From positions 1 through 45,623 of the forward strand of contig DXJF01000137.1 in NCBI GenBank assembly GCA_019057375.1: 45,623 bases of DNA, written 5' to 3'. Of the stretch, positions 20,433 to 30,286 are shown piece after piece. The notes under the pieces are model-generated. The model was not told the origin of the DNA. It did not search any database and was given only the letters and a program-made list of their open reading frames with translations. Each line of letters begins with the position of its first letter. Position 1 is the first letter of the stretch. Source of the stretch: Candidatus Heimdallarchaeota archaeon. GTDB lineage: Archaea > Asgardarchaeota > Heimdallarchaeia > Heimdallarchaeales > Heimdallarchaeaceae. Made by a program: the position numbers and the translations under genes.

Positions 20433-21809
20433 ATGATGTTTGGCGATTTAAGTTTTGAAGAAGCTCCTTTGATTAAGACTAAACTTCCTGGAATAAGATC
20501 AAAAGAATTTTTGAATTTACAGCAGAAACTAGAGGGAAATCCTGTTTCTTATCCAAAAGGTTCACCTATAGCCATCAAACAAGGATTTGGTGCAACAATA
20601 AAAGATGTTGATGATAATATCTTTATAGATTTTTTTGGAGGAGCGGGTGTTTTGGCTTTAGGACACTGTAATCCCTATATTGATGAAAGAATCCGAAAGG
20701 TTCAGAAAGAAATTACTCACACTCTTGATTTTCCTACTGAAATTCGTTTGGAACTTGTCGAAAAAATCCAGAATATTTTACCTAGCGATTTGAGAAACAA
20801 CTCAAAAGTAATCTTTGGGGGTCCTACTGGATCTGATGCTGTAGAAAGTGCAATAAAGCTCTCAAAAATAATTACTAAGAGACACGGAATTATTGCTTTT
20901 GAAGGAGCATATCATGGAATGACATCTGGAGCTCTTGCTTTAACTTCAGGTAAATTCTGGAAAGAAAAATATATGCCTTTGATTCCAGAAGTTCATTTTG
21001 TTCCTTATGCCTATTCTTATAGATGTCCATTCAAAACAAACACTGCTGCAGCTTGTGCAGAAGCTACTGCTAATTACTTTGAACATGTTCTAGAAGATCC
21101 TCATTCAGGTGTTGTGGATCCAGCGATGACTATTATAGAACCTATTCAAGGAGAAGGTGGATCAATAGTTCCTCACAATACTTTTGTAAAGAAAATTACC
21201 GAAATTAGCAAAAAATATGAAATCCCTATGGTTTTTGATGAGATTCAAGCAGGATTCTGCAGAACAGGTAAATTCTTCTCTTCAGAACATTCAGGAGCAT
21301 CTCCTGATATTATGACAATTTCAAAAGCATTAGGAGGAGGTTTTCCTCTATCAGCAATTGCATATAGAGAAGATTTAGATGTGTGGTCCAAAGCTGCTCA
21401 TATTGGTACATTCAGAGGGAATGTAACAGCTATGGCTGCAGGGTCCGCATCTATCGATTTTATGTTAGAAAACAATCTTGCGAATTATGTTGAAGAACTT
21501 GGAAATTATATGTTGCTAAAATTAGAAAAGTGTGAGAAGAATTCATCTATAATGGGAGAAGTAAGAGGAAAAGGGTTGATGATTGGAATCGAGATTGTTG
21601 AAGACAAAGAAACTAAGAAACCTTCACCAGATTTATGTTCAAAAATTAGAGATGAGATGTTTCGAAAAGGAGTTATAATAGAAATTGGTGGGCATTACGA
21701 TAATGTTCTGCGATTCCTTCCTCCTTTGATAATAACTAAAAAATTAGCAGAAACTGGAATAGATATCTGCACTGAATCAATAGAAAAGATAGAATCTGAA
21801 ATAGTTTGA
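20433..21809 (+). CDS. Class III PLP aminotransferase, diaminobutyrate/4-aminobutyrate transaminase-like
   Basis: GPTGSDAVESAIK, FEGAYHGMT, EPIQGEGG, DEIQAGFCRTG, SKALGGG and HIGTFRGN. Confidence 0.9.
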   Translation: MMFGDLSFEEAPLIKTKLPGIRSKEFLNLQQKLEGNPVSYPKGSPIAIKQGFGATIKDVDDNIFIDFFGGAGVLALGHCNPYIDERIRKVQKEITHTLDFPTEIRLELVEKIQNILPSDLRNNSKVIFGGPTGSDAVESAIKLSKIITKRHGIIAFEGAYHGMTSGALALTSGKFWKEKYMPLIPEVHFVPYAYSYRCPFKTNTAAACAEATANYFEHVLEDPHSGVVDPAMTIIEPIQGEGGSIVPHNTFVKKITEISKKYEIPMVFDEIQAGFCRTGKFFSSEHSGASPDIMTISKALGGGFPLSAIAYREDLDVWSKAAHIGTFRGNVTAMAAGSASIDFMLENNLANYVEELGNYMLLKLEKCEKNSSIMGEVRGKGLMIGIEIVEDKETKKPSPDLCSKIRDEMFRKGVIIEIGGHYDNVLRFLPPLIITKKLAETGIDICTESIEKIESEIV

Positions 21810-21816
21810 AGTGTCT

Positions 21817-22488
21817 CTATGAAGATTTATATCTTCTAATTTTGCTTGTTGAGACTTGATATTTCACTAATCCTATTAGAATGATAAGAGCACATACAAC
21901 TCCATCTAGAACTGGAACTCCAAGTTTCTTTTCCAATCTTTTGTCCAAACCAGTCATTCCTGCACACCCCAAAACAATCACTTCAGCTTTATCTTCCTTA
22001 ATAGCTTGTTTAGCTGTTTCCAAATATTTCTCTTCATCACTTAGGTTCTTGTATTCAACCTCAGGAGCTCTCACTGAAGCCAGAACATCCTGCAGATGAT
22101 ATTTTCTAATTAATGCTTCTTTATTTGGTATAGACTGCTCAGTCATTGAAATGACTGAGAAACTATGGCCTAGCATCGAAGCTATTTTCATAGATGCTTC
22201 TCCTATACCTACGACAGGTTTGTCAGTTATTTCTTTCATTACATCGAGATATGGATCACAATGACATGCAATAATATAACCATCAAATTCATCTTCATTA
22301 TCTCTAACTAATTGCATCATTCCTGATGCTGCTTTAACTTGATCTTCATAGGTTTCAATGAAGTTTGGTGCTCCATGTGTTGGTTTGCAAAAAACCTTTA
22401 GATCAGTATCTACAAAAGCATCTGCGGTTTCTTGAATAGCTTTTGTCATATTCAAATCACTATTCGGATTAATAATCAATATTTTCAA
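21817..22488 (-). CDS. Asp/Glu/hydantoin racemase family (allantoin/hydantoin racemase-like)
   Basis: ILIINPNS start and two catalytic Cys in IACHCDP and VLGCAGM. 4-bp overlap with the decarboxylase. Confidence 0.92.
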   Translation of the reverse strand: MKILIINPNSDLNMTKAIQETADAFVDTDLKVFCKPTHGAPNFIETYEDQVKAASGMMQLVRDNEDEFDGYIIACHCDPYLDVMKEITDKPVVGIGEASMKIASMLGHSFSVISMTEQSIPNKEALIRKYHLQDVLASVRAPEVEYKNLSDEEKYLETAKQAIKEDKAEVIVLGCAGMTGLDKRLEKKLGVPVLDGVVCALIILIGLVKYQVSTSKIRRYKSS

Positions 22489-23870
22489 TATAGCATTCCT
22501 CCATTAGCAATCACTCTAGCTTTCTCCTTGACATAAGTGATAGTTTTCATTAATGTTTCTGGTGTAGTTGGTGCAATTGCTACTAGTCTTAAAACAGCTT
22601 TGTCTCCAAGTTTTGTAAAAGATATTGAATGTTCTCCTCCTGAAATAACCTCCTCATGGACTAGTTTTAGATATTGATTAATCTGAATATCAGGAATTTG
22701 ATTGTTTTTAACTTGGAAACATAGTATACCTGTTTCGGGTTTGTTGCACAGTTCAATTTCTGTATCTGTTTTAAGAGATTCATAAATTGTGTCGATAGCT
22801 CGAATTGGAGATCTAAGTCTTTCATGAATTTTTGTAATTCCTTGATATCTAATTGAAGTAACCAACGGTAATGCTGAAAAAGGTCTTGTTGAAGGAGGTG
22901 ATTTCAATCCTGGACTTGGTACATCTTCACTTTCTCGATAAATATAGTCACTACGCAATGCCATACGATTGAAATCCTCTTTACGACGAACAAAAAGAAT
23001 GGAATTTGGGATTGGGGTTCCAAATTGTTTATGTGGATCCCAAGAAACTGAATCAGCAAATTCAATACCATAAAATCTCTCTCTGTATTCAGGAACCAAA
23101 GAATAGGCTAGACCATATGCACCATCTACATGCAACCACACTCCTATTCGTCTACATATTTTTGAAATTTCAAGTACATTATCTATTGATCCTGTAGATG
23201 TAGTTCCTGTTGTTGCAATAATGCAAAAGATATCGTAATTCTCAAGCAACTTATCTACTGTTTTTTGCATTTTCAGAATATCTATTCTTCTATTTACATC
23301 TACTTCTAAAGTTAGAAGGTTCTTATCTCCTAACCCCAACATTCTAACTGCGTGCTTGATTGAAAAATGTGCATCCGCTGAGGTTAACACAATAAGATTT
23401 TCTGGATTTTCAAATCCTTTTAATCCTTCTTGTGCAAAATCAAATCCTTCTTGTTCAGCTTTCCAATGAATTGCAAGATATAATGCTTCTTGATTGGCAT
23501 AAGTTCCTGAATACATAAAAGTACCATCTGAACCTGGTTCTAACTTGAAAAGAGAACAGAGAGCTTTAATGCAAAGTTCTTCTAACATAGCTCCACCAGG
23601 TGATACATACCAATCTGTTACTCCTTGATTATATTCTAGAGCAAGTTCTGCACCAATTTTTGCACCTTCTTCTAGAAAATTATTGAACATAGATAGAAAT
23701 CCTGGATGATTGTAGTTCATTAAATGGGGAAGTAATCTCTCTTCAAGCATCTGTTTGAGCTTTTCAGCTGAAATTCCTTCTTCTTGGAAATTAACAAGTG
23801 GTCGTAAATCCTCCATAACTTCAGCTGGAGTCGCTCCAGAAGAAATGGGCTTACTATCTTTATTTTGCAT
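22485..23870 (-). CDS. Group II PLP-dependent decarboxylase (Ddc/GAD-like)
   Basis: AHFSIK, ATTGTTSTGSID, WLHVDGAYG and DSVSWDPHK (PLP Lys). Confidence 0.92.
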   Translation of the reverse strand: MQNKDSKPISSGATPAEVMEDLRPLVNFQEEGISAEKLKQMLEERLLPHLMNYNHPGFLSMFNNFLEEGAKIGAELALEYNQGVTDWYVSPGGAMLEELCIKALCSLFKLEPGSDGTFMYSGTYANQEALYLAIHWKAEQEGFDFAQEGLKGFENPENLIVLTSADAHFSIKHAVRMLGLGDKNLLTLEVDVNRRIDILKMQKTVDKLLENYDIFCIIATTGTTSTGSIDNVLEISKICRRIGVWLHVDGAYGLAYSLVPEYRERFYGIEFADSVSWDPHKQFGTPIPNSILFVRRKEDFNRMALRSDYIYRESEDVPSPGLKSPPSTRPFSALPLVTSIRYQGITKIHERLRSPIRAIDTIYESLKTDTEIELCNKPETGILCFQVKNNQIPDIQINQYLKLVHEEVISGGEHSISFTKLGDKAVLRLVAIAPTTPETLMKTITYVKEKARVIANGGMLY

Positions 23871-23943
23871 AATTTATTCACTCCTCACGAAGATTTAAGA
23901 TATATTATTCTACTGTAAAATAAAAGTACTGCAAAAAAAACAA

Positions 23944-25341
23944 TTGGATAGATGGAACATGGTGGACCTGAATATCATTAATGGAAAAGTTTTCGTAAAA
24001 AATGAACTGATTGAAACAGGATTAAGCATAGATAAAGGAAAAATTGTTTCAATTGGTCAGATAAACACTCTTCCTACAGCTGATAAAACTATTAATGCAG
24101 AAAATCGTTTGATACTCCCAGGTGGAATAGATGTTCATACTCATATTTTGGATTTAGAGTTTTCTTATAGAGAAGATTTCTATACAGGAACACAAGCAGC
24201 TTCATCGGGGGGAATAACTACAATTTTAGAAATGCCAATGGGAATCAAAGGAAAATCAGTAATCGAAGCTTTTGATATGCAATTGAATGCAATGAAAGAT
24301 AGAAGTTTGGTTGATTTTGGACTTATCGGTTCTGCAGGTTACAATAATATCGATTCAATTGATGAGCTTGTTTCAAAAGGAGCGATAGCTTTCAAAACGT
24401 TCATGTTAGATGCTCCAGAAGAAATGTATGAACTCAAAGATCTCTCTGCAAAAAACGATTCTTTTCTCTTGAAGATATTTTCAAAAATAGCAGAAATAGG
24501 TTCAGTTAGCTGTATTCATGCAGAAAATGATTCTATAATAAGTGATGAAATTAATAGATTGACATCAATGGGTAAATGTAATTTTCAAGCTCATACTGAT
24601 TCTCGACCAGCTATAGCAGAAGATGAAGCTTGTCTGCGAGCTATGACGCTAGCAAATCATGCTAAAGCAAAATTAAATCTAGTACATATGAGTTCAAAAA
24701 ATGCTTTTGCTTTTATTAAATTAGCTAAACAGAGAGGATGGAATGTAACCTGTGAAGTTACTCCTCATCATCTATTCTTGACTTCAGATGATACAGCAGA
24801 ATTAGGTTCATGGGCAAAATCTGATCCCCCTATAAGGTCTAAGGATCATATGGAAGCTGCCTGGATAGCATTAAATGAGGGTACTATAGATATGGTAGCT
24901 TCTGATCATTCACCTTACAGTGTAGATGAAAAGGATATTAGAAATAAGGAGAATGGAATTTTTGGTGTTGGATCAGGTACTCCAGGCTTGGAAACAATGA
25001 TTCCTTTGTTATTAGATGCTGTTAATAAGAGGAGGTTATCTTTGAAAAGATATGTAGAAGTAACTTCATCAAATCCTGCAAAAAGATTTGGATTATACCC
25101 TAAAAAAGGAACAATTTCCTTAAATGCAGATGCTGATTTAAAAGTCGTTGATATGAAAAGAGAATATACTCTGAAAAATGAAAACATGTTCACAAAACAA
25201 AAAATAACAATTTTCGATGGGTGGAAACTACAAGGAAAAATAGAAAAGACAATTATCAGAGGAAAAATTGTTTATGAAGAGGGAGATTTCCTTACTAGAA
25301 GCGGGAGCGGGATTTTTATAACTCCTCATTATGTCAAATAG
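23944..25341 (+). CDS. Cyclic amidohydrolase (allantoinase/hydantoinase/dihydroorotase family)
   Basis: PGGIDVHTH, FKTFM, HAEN, CEVTPHH and ASDHSP. The start may be the ATG at 23959. Confidence 0.92.
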   Translation: MDRWNMVDLNIINGKVFVKNELIETGLSIDKGKIVSIGQINTLPTADKTINAENRLILPGGIDVHTHILDLEFSYREDFYTGTQAASSGGITTILEMPMGIKGKSVIEAFDMQLNAMKDRSLVDFGLIGSAGYNNIDSIDELVSKGAIAFKTFMLDAPEEMYELKDLSAKNDSFLLKIFSKIAEIGSVSCIHAENDSIISDEINRLTSMGKCNFQAHTDSRPAIAEDEACLRAMTLANHAKAKLNLVHMSSKNAFAFIKLAKQRGWNVTCEVTPHHLFLTSDDTAELGSWAKSDPPIRSKDHMEAAWIALNEGTIDMVASDHSPYSVDEKDIRNKENGIFGVGSGTPGLETMIPLLLDAVNKRRLSLKRYVEVTSSNPAKRFGLYPKKGTISLNADADLKVVDMKREYTLKNENMFTKQKITIFDGWKLQGKIEKTIIRGKIVYEEGDFLTRSGSGIFITPHYVK

Positions 25342-25431: not shown

Positions 25432-27450
25432 ATGATTAATATCAAAACTCTTATCAAGAACAATTATTCAGAACTCATCCTGTTCAGCATAATTTTCCTG
25501 TTTTTCATGCAAATGCTTTCGGATTTAGCTGAAAGAATTTATGACTATGCTTTACTCGGATTGAAACCTACTTTGCATATTCTTGCATTATTATTCTTGT
25601 TTTCCTCTATAGCACTGCTCTTCTTTAGAAAGCCAATTTCAGATATAACTTTGTTTATTTTAGGAGAGCTAATTATTGTAACTAGATTAATTGAGCCATT
25701 ACTCAAAGGAGAAGGCCTACTTATATTAGCTGGAATATCTGTTAGTGGTTTCCTTATTTTCTTTCCAGCAATTTTCACAAGAAGTAAGAACAAAGAACAA
25801 CAAACTGGGATAACATTAGGAGTCTCATTAGCAATAGCTGTTGCATTATCTGTATTATTCAGAACAGTTAACTCCACACTAGATGTTTCAGTGTACAGGT
25901 GGTATCAAATTATTGGTTGGGTATTAGGAATACTAGCATCACTTATGCTAGTTGGAATGCTATTAAGAAGTGAAAAGCCAGCTCAGATAAAATCAAAAGA
26001 TGAAGAAAGCCCTGTAAAATTCGGTAGGATTCTTCTTTTAACTCTTGGTTTGTCGAGTGTTTTCATAATAATATGGTTTACATTTATAAGTCCAACAGTG
26101 ATTTCGAGATGGACTGAAGGTAACTATATTGGTATTGTTATTGGTGTTTTAGTGATGTTAACTTTGTTTATCGTGGGAATGATTTTAAAACCAGATTTAA
26201 TGAACTTAATCAAATCGTGGATGCTTTGGTCTTGGAATGGACTTTTCGCACTCTCTCTTACTTTTACTGTTATGATGCATCAAATAATACCCACATATGG
26301 TTTGTTCTTCCCTGATAATCCCGCTGCATACCCAATTGTTGCATTTCCAACGGCCTGGTTTTATCATATCCCTTTAGTCATGATGATTCTACTTTCTCCT
26401 ATAATTTACATAGATTTTATTCTTTTATCAAGAGAATTACTAAAAATGAAGCCAAAACCAGCAAAAATAGGAGGAGGTTTTACTTTAGGTGCAGGTTTGT
26501 ATATTCTAATAATGATTTTTATGCAAGTATTACCCAACGTCTGGGGATATCTTAGACCAATTAGCACTGGTTTCAGAGATTTATACTGGTTAGCATTTCT
26601 AATTCCAGGATTATTCATTACTATACCTATCATCCTATTCAAGAAAGATACTATGAAATTTGTAAAAACAGCTAGAGAACTTAAATCGAAATCCATAATT
26701 CTTACTATTTTAGGATTGATATTTCTAGGGACAGTTGTAGGAGCTCTTGTTACAAGTCCTCATCCAGGCACACCAGATGAAGAGAAAACTTCTCTAATAA
26801 TCATGACTTTCAATATTAGGGAAGGTGTAAACAACACTGGTGAAAAGAACTATGATGGACAACTGGAACTGATAAGAAGTGTTAATCCTGATATTATTGC
26901 TTTACAAGAATGCGATCCTGCAAGAATTGGTGGAGGTAATTCAGATGTTGTTAGATATTTTGCGAATAAATTAAATATGTACTCTTACCGAGGGCCTAAA
27001 ACAGTTGCAAATACATATGGTACGGCTATCCTGTCCAAATATCCAATTACTAGTGTTGCAGCTTTCTTTATGTTTAGTACTCATCAACAGATAGGAACAA
27101 CACAAGCACAGATTAGATTCAATTCAACTCTATCCTTCAATGTCTTCTCAAACCATCCTGCTGCTAGAACTCCAGAAGCAAAAGTTTACCAAATTGAACA
27201 AATACTAAGCCGAACAGTAGGTCTAGATAACGTTTTACTCATGGGTGATTTCAATTTTAGACCTTACTCAGAATCATATAACATAACTGTAGCTACATTA
27301 GACGATTCTTGGGAGCAAAAATGGTTATCTCCAGCGGCAACAAGAATTGATCATATATTCCTGAGTCCAGGATTGACTGTTCTTGATGCTGTTTATATTG
27401 AAAAGGGCCAATCTGATCATCCTGCATATTGGGTTGAAATTCAATTGTGA
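25432..27450 (+). CDS. Polytopic membrane protein with C-terminal EEP domain (CWH43/PGAP2IP-like architecture)
   Basis: More than 12 hydrophobic segments in the first ~445 aa, then MTFNIRE, LQECD, GDFN, IDHIF and SDHP. Confidence 0.85.
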   Translation: MINIKTLIKNNYSELILFSIIFLFFMQMLSDLAERIYDYALLGLKPTLHILALLFLFSSIALLFFRKPISDITLFILGELIIVTRLIEPLLKGEGLLILAGISVSGFLIFFPAIFTRSKNKEQQTGITLGVSLAIAVALSVLFRTVNSTLDVSVYRWYQIIGWVLGILASLMLVGMLLRSEKPAQIKSKDEESPVKFGRILLLTLGLSSVFIIIWFTFISPTVISRWTEGNYIGIVIGVLVMLTLFIVGMILKPDLMNLIKSWMLWSWNGLFALSLTFTVMMHQIIPTYGLFFPDNPAAYPIVAFPTAWFYHIPLVMMILLSPIIYIDFILLSRELLKMKPKPAKIGGGFTLGAGLYILIMIFMQVLPNVWGYLRPISTGFRDLYWLAFLIPGLFITIPIILFKKDTMKFVKTARELKSKSIILTILGLIFLGTVVGALVTSPHPGTPDEEKTSLIIMTFNIREGVNNTGEKNYDGQLELIRSVNPDIIALQECDPARIGGGNSDVVRYFANKLNMYSYRGPKTVANTYGTAILSKYPITSVAAFFMFSTHQQIGTTQAQIRFNSTLSFNVFSNHPAARTPEAKVYQIEQILSRTVGLDNVLLMGDFNFRPYSESYNITVATLDDSWEQKWLSPAATRIDHIFLSPGLTVLDAVYIEKGQSDHPAYWVEIQL

Positions 27451-29422: not shown

Positions 29423-30286
29423 CTAGTCTATATGTGGAACCAAAGTAGCTTGAAAACTCTTAACTCCTGTGGATAACATTACACAAGGAGGAATTTCCCA
29501 ATTCAAGACTTCTTCTATATTTATTACTTTTTTAACTTCATTTTCAAATAGACTAAAATATTTGGTATTATATGCATCACTTAAGATAAGATCATATTCT
29601 ACACCATTGGATTGCAATTCTGAAAATTTCTCAGCAGCTTTCTTTATAGCTCCTTTAAATCCCATACCTGCACCACATCCTTGAGCTCCTTTATCAAGTA
29701 CCACTTCATATAGAGGTTTTAATTTTAATAGAGACGCCATAACATTTAGAGAAGCCTTTTTCTGTACTTTTCCTGTTTTAAATAGTACTTCGAAAGAAGG
29801 TGACATTCCTATAGTGAAAGTTTGAGTTCTCATCACATCTAAAATTGAAATCATCTCATCAACATTATTCCCTTGTTTCACAAATTTAACAGCATTATAA
29901 ACCAGAGCTCCTTGACTAGATGTGCTTAGACCACATTCATAGAGCGTTACCTTAATCTTATCGTCAATTTTCTTAGCAGCAATTTTAGCAGAGTTGAATT
30001 GATTTGATATTGTAGGAGAAAGTCCAATGTATAAGATTTCATCATATTTTTCATCTAGTGCTTGATTAAATATATCAAGAGCTTCTTGAGGACTAGCCAT
30101 TGTTGTTGTTGGGTAGGGATTAAGTTTTGGAATAGAGTTAGCTAAATCCTTACGATCCAACTCTGTTATCTCTTTTAGGTCTTGACCATCAAGAAAAACT
30201 TTGCTCTCAAGAATTCCAATATTTTCCTTTTCTGCGAATTCTTGAGGAATACCAGATGTTGAATCTGTTACAATTTTAATTTTCAT
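29423..30286 (-). CDS. DegV/EDD-family fatty-acid-binding protein
   Basis: KIVTDSTSGIP start, PTTTMASP, LSPTISNQFNSA and LKLKPL. Confidence 0.92.
   Translation of the reverse strand: MKIKIVTDSTSGIPQEFAEKENIGILESKVFLDGQDLKEITELDRKDLANSIPKLNPYPTTTMASPQEALDIFNQALDEKYDEILYIGLSPTISNQFNSAKIAAKKIDDKIKVTLYECGLSTSSQGALVYNAVKFVKQGNNVDEMISILDVMRTQTFTIGMSPSFEVLFKTGKVQKKASLNVMASLLKLKPLYEVVLDKGAQGCGAGMGFKGAIKKAAEKFSELQSNGVEYDLILSDAYNTKYFSLFENEVKKVINIEEVLNWEIPPCVMLSTGVKSFQATLVPHID

Follow-up and report, generated by a model that had tools for sequence, protein, structure and literature searches.

Does the gene at positions 25432..27450 (+) of contig DXJF01000137.1 from Candidatus Heimdallarchaeota archaeon encode an archaeal relative of the eukaryotic protein PGAP2IP/Cwh43, and could it be an ancestor of the machinery by which eukaryotes remodel the lipid of glycosylphosphatidylinositol (GPI) anchors? 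The original prediction, made from the DNA letters of this contig (positions 1 to 45,623; this whole stretch of 45,623 nucleotides is called the window in the following), saw such a likeness and named the gene as a candidate ancestor of eukaryotic anchor-lipid remodelling. On sequence comparison, the window gene is a full-length yet distant relative of PGAP2IP/Cwh43, and apparently not the closest one in Asgard archaea. In the simplest reading, the family to which it belongs (family A) would be a distant paralogous side branch, and a separate, rarer Asgard clade (family B), or some bacterial lineage, would lie nearer to the eukaryotic gene.

As predicted, the protein joins a large polytopic transmembrane (TM) region to a C-terminal endonuclease/exonuclease/phosphatase (EEP) domain. 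Its open reading frame (ORF) comprises 672 codons uninterrupted by stop. This is no chance ORF, since full-length counterparts of the product, 41-94% identical to it, are encoded in metagenome-assembled genomes (MAGs) named Heimdall-, Hod-, Loki-, Thor-, Odin- and Hermodarchaeota. Hydropathy as well as two AlphaFold2 models, one of the full-length protein (pLDDT 82.9, pTM 0.87) and one of the TM region only (pLDDT 83.5, pTM 0.88), give 13 TM helices, the first 12 of which are arranged in a 6+6 fold of the major facilitator superfamily (MFS) type. Because lysine and arginine residues number 20 on the predicted inner loops versus 7 on the predicted outer loops, the N-terminus is predicted to be cytoplasmic and the EEP domain extracytoplasmic, on a side that the models make topologically equivalent to the eukaryotic lumenal side. 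This order of 6+6 TM helices, a linker TM helix and a non-cytoplasmic EEP domain is that of PGAP2IP and of the C-terminal part of CWH43.

The EEP domain matches the generic Pfam model PF03372 at residues 458-663 (8.4e-23, 81.7 bits, profile positions 1-225) and the PGAP2IP-specific EEP model PF23226 at residues 458-620 (1.2e-15, 57.9 bits versus a cut-off of 27), and PF23226 likewise matches 21 out of 21 Asgard family members. Within the latter match lies the segment that had been likened to yeast Cwh43 (residues 491-539). The canonical motifs read earlier from the sequence are all kept (GDFN at 605-608, DH as part of IDH at 639-641, SDH at 661-663), and residues N461, E493, D495, H575, D606, N608, D640, D662 and H663 are invariant in the alignment of 21 Asgard family A (A1) members. 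The PF03372 match together with these catalytic residues places the domain in the EEP superfamily, and with its catalytic residues intact it is apparently active. The nearest characterised EEP proteins act on sugar-phosphate esters, namely the BT3783 mannosyl-6-phosphatase (PDB 4c1r), which is among the best PDB sequence matches, and the GlcNAc-6-phosphocholine/-ethanolamine phosphodiesterase.

As EEP is also the fold of DNase I, exonuclease III and TDP2, the window protein might be a membrane-anchored extracellular nuclease serving DNA or RNA degradation or uptake, with the TM domain as an anchor only. Indeed, Foldseek matches the domain to EEP structures, the top ones of which include TDP2 and the LINE-1 endonuclease, and the exonuclease model TIGR00633 (xth) gives a weak match, which at 21 bits remains far under its cut-off of 99. 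However, it is the PGAP2IP-specific model and the sugar-phosphate EEPs that are nearest by sequence, and a conserved 12-TM MFS bundle whose outer loops are conserved too goes far beyond the needs of anchoring, so that we regard a nuclease as the most improbable of the readings weighed here. A scan of the window protein against NCBIfam added nothing, and a PDB search with its single sequence gave no match.

Homology of the TM region to PGAP2IP-type TM domains is supported by sequence comparisons that run through more distant family members. Pfam describes PGAP2IP by three models, PF23022 (6TM_1st), PF23021 (6TM_2nd) and PF23226 (EEP), each with a cut-off of 27 bits. PF23021 matches 9 of 70 diverse family A members, below threshold (best E 4.4e-7) and just ahead of the EEP domain, as for instance in P0212, whose residues 175-365 align to profile positions 6-174. 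When 251 Asgard genomes were scanned with PF23021, ORFs of 627-658 aa were found in all three genomes of a single genus, which belongs to the taxonomic order of the window genome. These family B ORFs pass all three models (PF23022 at 29-42, PF23021 at 64-87 and PF23226 at 98-109 bits), and a further search added seven relatives, with names that include Kariarchaeaceae, Hodarchaeota and Promethearchaeota. Family B is in turn collinear with family A: BLASTP of the window protein against a family B protein gives a single collinear high-scoring segment pair (157-613 versus 149-559, E 1e-18) covering TM7-13 and both loop motifs described below, and hhalign aligns the two families over 587 columns at full length (E 2.7e-40). 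With the EEP domain removed, TM-only profiles of 138 (A) and 11 (B) sequences still align over 318 collinear columns with a probability of 99.3% (E 1.5e-20); the first halves match each other at E 1.2e-11 and the second halves at 8.7e-13, versus 0.15-0.44 in cross-paired controls of first against second halves. The homology to PGAP2IP of the TM region is concluded from this chain of PF23021 matches, a three-model family B and collinear A-B alignments. As a lead only, the ESM Atlas lists fungal "Protein cwh43" clusters, which carry PF23022, PF23021 and PF23226 with or without Frag1, as feature-neighbours of family B.

Within the bundle, the residues that are most conserved, and that are common to family B too, sit in outer-face loops. 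The top-conserved motif of the TM region, SPTVISRWTEGNY, forms a short outer-face helix between TM7 and TM8; it reads SPTVISRW(T)EG invariantly among the 21 aligned Asgard members, where P221, T222, V223, R226, W227 and T228 do not vary, and P221 and W227 are kept in at least 90% of 149 sequences. Its P..RW core aligns with IIPRW in family B, and in the loop between TM11 and TM12 the residues Y373, F381 and R382 are likewise common to family B (VYDYVP..FRE). Inside the membrane, the acidic D31 in TM1 is conserved and aligned with E29 of family B, and TM3 and TM5 carry the arginines R85 and R144.

These residues bear on the main rival to the reading that we favour, namely a scavenging ecto-enzyme coupled to an importer, in which glycans, glycolipids or environmental phosphodiesters would lose phosphocholine, phosphoethanolamine or sugar-6-phosphate to the EEP domain and the released product would be imported by the MFS domain. 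The fold of the TM domain is truly that of an MFS transporter, D31 (E29 in family B), R85 and R144 resemble cavity residues, and the closest EEPs that have been characterised are soluble phosphodiesterases or phosphatases specific for sugars. On the other hand, no Pfam MFS family matches the window protein (E<=1) or its 21 homologues (E<=10), the positions that A and B have in common are concentrated in outer loops next to the EEP domain instead of lining a central transport path, no conserved uptake or catabolic genes lie nearby, and the eukaryotic relatives are tied genetically to lipid remodelling, not to uptake. We therefore hold scavenging and import to be unlikely, albeit less so than either a nuclease or true GPI remodelling.

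How close is the window gene to the eukaryotic one? By eukaryote-type Pfam models, family B outscores family A throughout, with 98-109, 64-87 and 29-42 bits on PF23226, PF23021 and PF23022 versus 57.9 bits, none and none for the window protein; the side-branch reading is drawn from this difference. As the closest Asgard relative of PGAP2IP/Cwh43, family B is a far stronger candidate than the window gene. In a maximum-likelihood tree rooted with family B, family A is monophyletic (SH-aLRT 100) and separate from B, Anaerolineae-type sequences are basal, and the window gene's family groups with Chloroflexota membrane EEPs. Such a grouping is already in the literature: the CLANS map of Fossa et al. 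2023 (PMC10704324), who characterised soluble GlcNAc-6-phosphocholine/-ethanolamine phosphodiesterases (GlcNAc-PDase), places the Cwh43 proteins of yeast and S. pombe, mouse PGAP2IP, GlcNAc-PDase and an Asgardarchaeota/Chloroflexota sub-cluster in one group, the sub-cluster differing in size and domain organisation. The original interpretation is supported in part, namely for homology over the whole length.

The gene could still be directly orthologous or ancestral to eukaryotic PGAP2IP/Cwh43 and serve in Asgard archaea to remodel the lipid of a GPI-like protein anchor, and its architecture, its whole-length homology and the report that GPI-anchor synthesis in general is Asgard-derived (PMC12872458, 2026, Nature) would agree with this; the text and the accessible supplements of that report make no mention of CWH43/PGAP2IP. 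The window genome also holds two adjacent myo-inositol-1-phosphate synthase genes (G000:C78:17982-19377; 110.9 and 73.4 bits), which make inositol lipids plausible, and four PIG-L-family genes. Both families are widespread, however, and PIG-L proteins also have other roles. Furthermore, PIG-M, GWT1 and PigN were not found in the window genome, which is 89% complete and in which models built from eukaryotes may miss distant homologues; Peptidase_C13 gives a weak partial match of 27.8 bits; and the Frag1/PGAP2-like model PF10277 matches neither the window protein, nor its 21 Asgard homologues, nor the locus. A GPI role in this genome finds no support in the pathway context, eukaryote-type models match family B far better, and family A groups with Chloroflexota proteins, so that direct orthology is very improbable and the proposal of a candidate ancestor is not supported for the window gene.

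Family A is a large prokaryotic family with hundreds of members, spread over most major Asgard lineages, Chloroflexota and other bacteria including Hydrogenedentota. Of 13154 proteins that the full-length profile retrieved from a representative library at E<=1e-3, 395 reach E<=1e-30; the top 150 are all family members, mostly full length, with E<1e-98. The profile matches 109 of the 251 sampled Asgard genomes at E<=1e-30 in a patchy manner (23 of 25 genomes in the window genome's own family, none in many small families), whereas family B was found in only 3 of the 251. A Promethearchaeum MAG (L062) also carries the gene. Bacterial members are named Anaerolineae and Hydrogenedentes, and in the ESM Atlas there are pointers to clusters from Chloroflexota and Thermoplasmatota. 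The window gene itself falls in a clade specific to Heimdallarchaeaceae, next to which stands the clade of its paralogue, and these two adjacent clades imply a duplication within Heimdallarchaeaceae, both copies of which are present in the window genome.

Taken together, we think it probable that the window gene encodes a PGAP2IP-like membrane enzyme of MFS-fold plus EEP type that works by a lipid-head-group mechanism, belongs to the family A side branch and was duplicated in Heimdallarchaeaceae. In such an enzyme, helices 1-12 would form the 6+6 major-facilitator-type bundle, and helix 13 would take the chain to the outer face, where the metal-dependent EEP domain would stand beside the outer loops P..RW and Y...FR[DE]. 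The bundle may bind a membrane phospholipid or glycophospholipid by its lipid part, or admit that part laterally, and thereby present the head-group phosphodiester to the EEP domain, which would either hydrolyse it or transfer the head group to another acceptor; inositol- or sugar-phosphate-linked archaeal lipids would be the most plausible substrate candidates. We infer this mechanism by analogy, from the genetic role of Cwh43 in GPI lipid exchange and from the sugar-phosphate specificity of the nearest characterised EEPs.

Several points weigh against this reading. The two TM models, PF23022 and PF23021, match neither the window protein, nor its 21 Asgard homologues (E<=10), nor the locus, so that of the PGAP2IP domains against which the prediction was to be checked, the EEP domain was recovered directly and the TM halves by profile-profile comparison; even for the EEP domain, the generic PF03372 outscores the PGAP2IP-specific PF23226 (81.7 versus 57.9 bits). 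The side-branch position takes Pfam scores as a proxy for eukaryotes, the tree being composed of Asgard and bacterial sequences. The contact between the outer loops and the EEP active site is deduced from topology only, and an MFS fold fits transport as well as lipid presentation. When neighbours were clustered across 81 loci, none recurred in more than 11, and the gene therefore stands alone, its surroundings giving no pointer to a substrate.

An alignment search with family B returned Asgard family B members and weak EEPs only, and a metagenome scan with family B gave family A and B members together with EEP-only bacterial genes; apparent "intron" cases in that scan turned out to be tandem EEP genes or high-GC bacterial ORFs. 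A search for longer proteins with the C-terminal alignment, aimed at the fungal Cwh43 of about 950 aa, gave one unrelated match, the metagenomic protein P0277 of 2595 aa with PF09479 and a PGAP2IP-type EEP domain.

Among the neighbours of the window gene, an upstream group of four genes at 20433-25341 (class III aminotransferase, Asp/Glu/hydantoin racemase, pyridoxal phosphate (PLP) decarboxylase and amidohydrolase) shows no linkage with the EEP gene elsewhere. About 2 kb downstream, at 29423-30286, lies a gene for a fatty-acid-binding DegV protein, and another DegV gene (L090:697-1542) is found near a bacterial member of the family, which has GT21/GT2 and YdjC genes in its vicinity as well. 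A linkage with DegV was rejected as it did not recur across loci, and the proximity is probably a coincidence. The bacterial member P0214 (L088/L089: 1-4679) is located near genes for a PMT_2 glycosyltransferase, a phosphomannomutase and a mannose-1-phosphate guanylyltransferase, which is possibly a glycoconjugate context.

Some members deviate from the common form or position (Table 1). In other Asgard families, the protein is split, so that a TM gene of about 400-444 aa matching PF23021 adjoins one for the EEP part, about 190-390 aa long. Within the class of the window genome, there is one genus where a family A gene adjoins a far more divergent paralogue that matches only the last TM helices and the EEP domain of the profile; frames are 642-647 aa long in three of these tandem pairs and 448 aa in G241. 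Two Hydrogenedentes sequences (P0273/P0275) with a branch length of 2.2 are nested, with unsure placement, in the Asgard part of family A, which may reflect transfer or a long-branch artefact. Moreover, an Asgard-type copy with 44% identity to the window protein is located on a contig (L052, DATKTP010000097.1) of a MAG labelled as bacterial, Candidatus Deferrimicrobium sp., which suggests mis-binning or recent transfer.

Table 1. Features of the window gene and positions of related genes in the same and other genomes (residue numbers refer to the window protein; topology as predicted)
Feature	Position	Strand	Remarks
Whole gene	25432..27450	+	672 aa: MFS-fold 12-TM domain, linker TM13, predicted extracytoplasmic EEP phosphodiesterase domain
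TM1-TM6, N-half of MFS-like fold	25471..25968	+	residues 14-179; homologous to the PF23022 (6TM_1st_PGAP2IP) region of family B
Cytoplasmic K/E-rich linker between the 6-TM halves, disordered, low-confidence	25969..26019	+	residues 180-196; pLDDT <50 at 182-191; 4 K/R
TM7-TM12, C-half of MFS-like fold	26020..26637	+	residues 197-402; homologous to PF23021 (6TM_2nd_PGAP2IP)
Top-conserved TM-region motif	26089..26127	+	residues 220-232; short outer-face helix between TM7 and TM8
Conserved outer loop TM11-TM12, VWGY...FRD	26539..26580	+	residues 370-383
TM13 linker helix, brings chain to outer face	26680..26751	+	residues 417-440
EEP phosphodiesterase domain	26803..27447	+	residues 458-672; N461, E493, D495, H575, D606/N608, D640/H641, D662/H663, invariant in the family
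Second family A copy, same genome	G000:C115:37191-39203	-	locus L001; 671 aa; 57% identical to window copy
Family B member	L091:664-2547	-	family B (with P0278-P0287): 600-658 aa; nearly all pass three PGAP2IP models
Family B member	L092:949-2841	+	as above
Family B member	L093:907-2883	+	as above
Split forms	G131:C22:38035-39410, G236:C7:110461-111836, G239:C1:1016149-1017518, G176:C21:43884-45277, G027:C7:46151-47241, G106:C26:6754-8153		
Tandem pairs	G136:C13:15006-19043, G217:C1:185559-189621, G214:C17:18240-22339, G241:C1:2239114-2243134		

The window gene itself is of modest value, being one of hundreds in family A, on a side branch and without informative context. Of wider interest is that compact prokaryotic MFS+EEP homologues could be expressed and assayed, thereby opening a route to the chemistry of Cwh43/PGAP2IP, and that the Asgard distribution, in which family A is common while family B, within Heimdallarchaeia, is rare and more eukaryote-like, bears on recent claims of an Asgard-derived GPI machinery. 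As a long shot, MFS-EEP enzymes (family A, and family B in Kari- and Hodarchaea) might act at the cell surface on archaeal glycolipids or protein anchors linked through inositol phosphate, exchanging or trimming their lipid moiety, as a prokaryotic forerunner of eukaryotic GPI lipid remodelling; if true, this lipid exchange or trimming would offer a tractable way to learn the reaction of Cwh43/PGAP2IP.

Among known systems, the soluble EEP enzymes are near in sequence yet different in build. The GlcNAc-PDase group and BT3783 (4c1r) share an EEP sub-cluster with the window protein, but they are soluble, secreted, single-domain proteins of 219-357 aa, whereas the EEP domain of the window protein is fused to a 13-TM domain, so that the latter does not belong to the GlcNAc-PDase type. 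MFS transporters, including the lipid-handling Spns1 and LtaA, share the fold of the bundle; in contrast to them, the window protein has no MFS family sequence match and possesses an additional TM13 and a catalytic ectodomain. Family B has the same architecture, the same P..RW and Y..FR[DE] loops and the same EEP catalytic set as the window protein, although the identity is about 22%, B passes three PGAP2IP models versus one, and the two form separate clades. Mammalian PGAP2IP (gene CWH43) and the C-terminal two-thirds of fungal Cwh43 show the same 6+6 TM helices, linker TM and non-cytoplasmic C-terminal EEP domain, and human PGAP2IP, with about 700 aa, is similar in length to the 672 aa of the window protein. 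The EEP domain of the latter passes PF23226 and both TM halves are homologous by way of family B profiles, while its TM region has diverged beyond the reach of the Pfam TM models and the N-terminal Frag1/PGAP2-like domain of fungal Cwh43 is absent. Unlike these eukaryotic counterparts, the window protein comes from an organism in which no GPI core pathway was seen and from a family that is mainly prokaryotic and also present in Chloroflexota.

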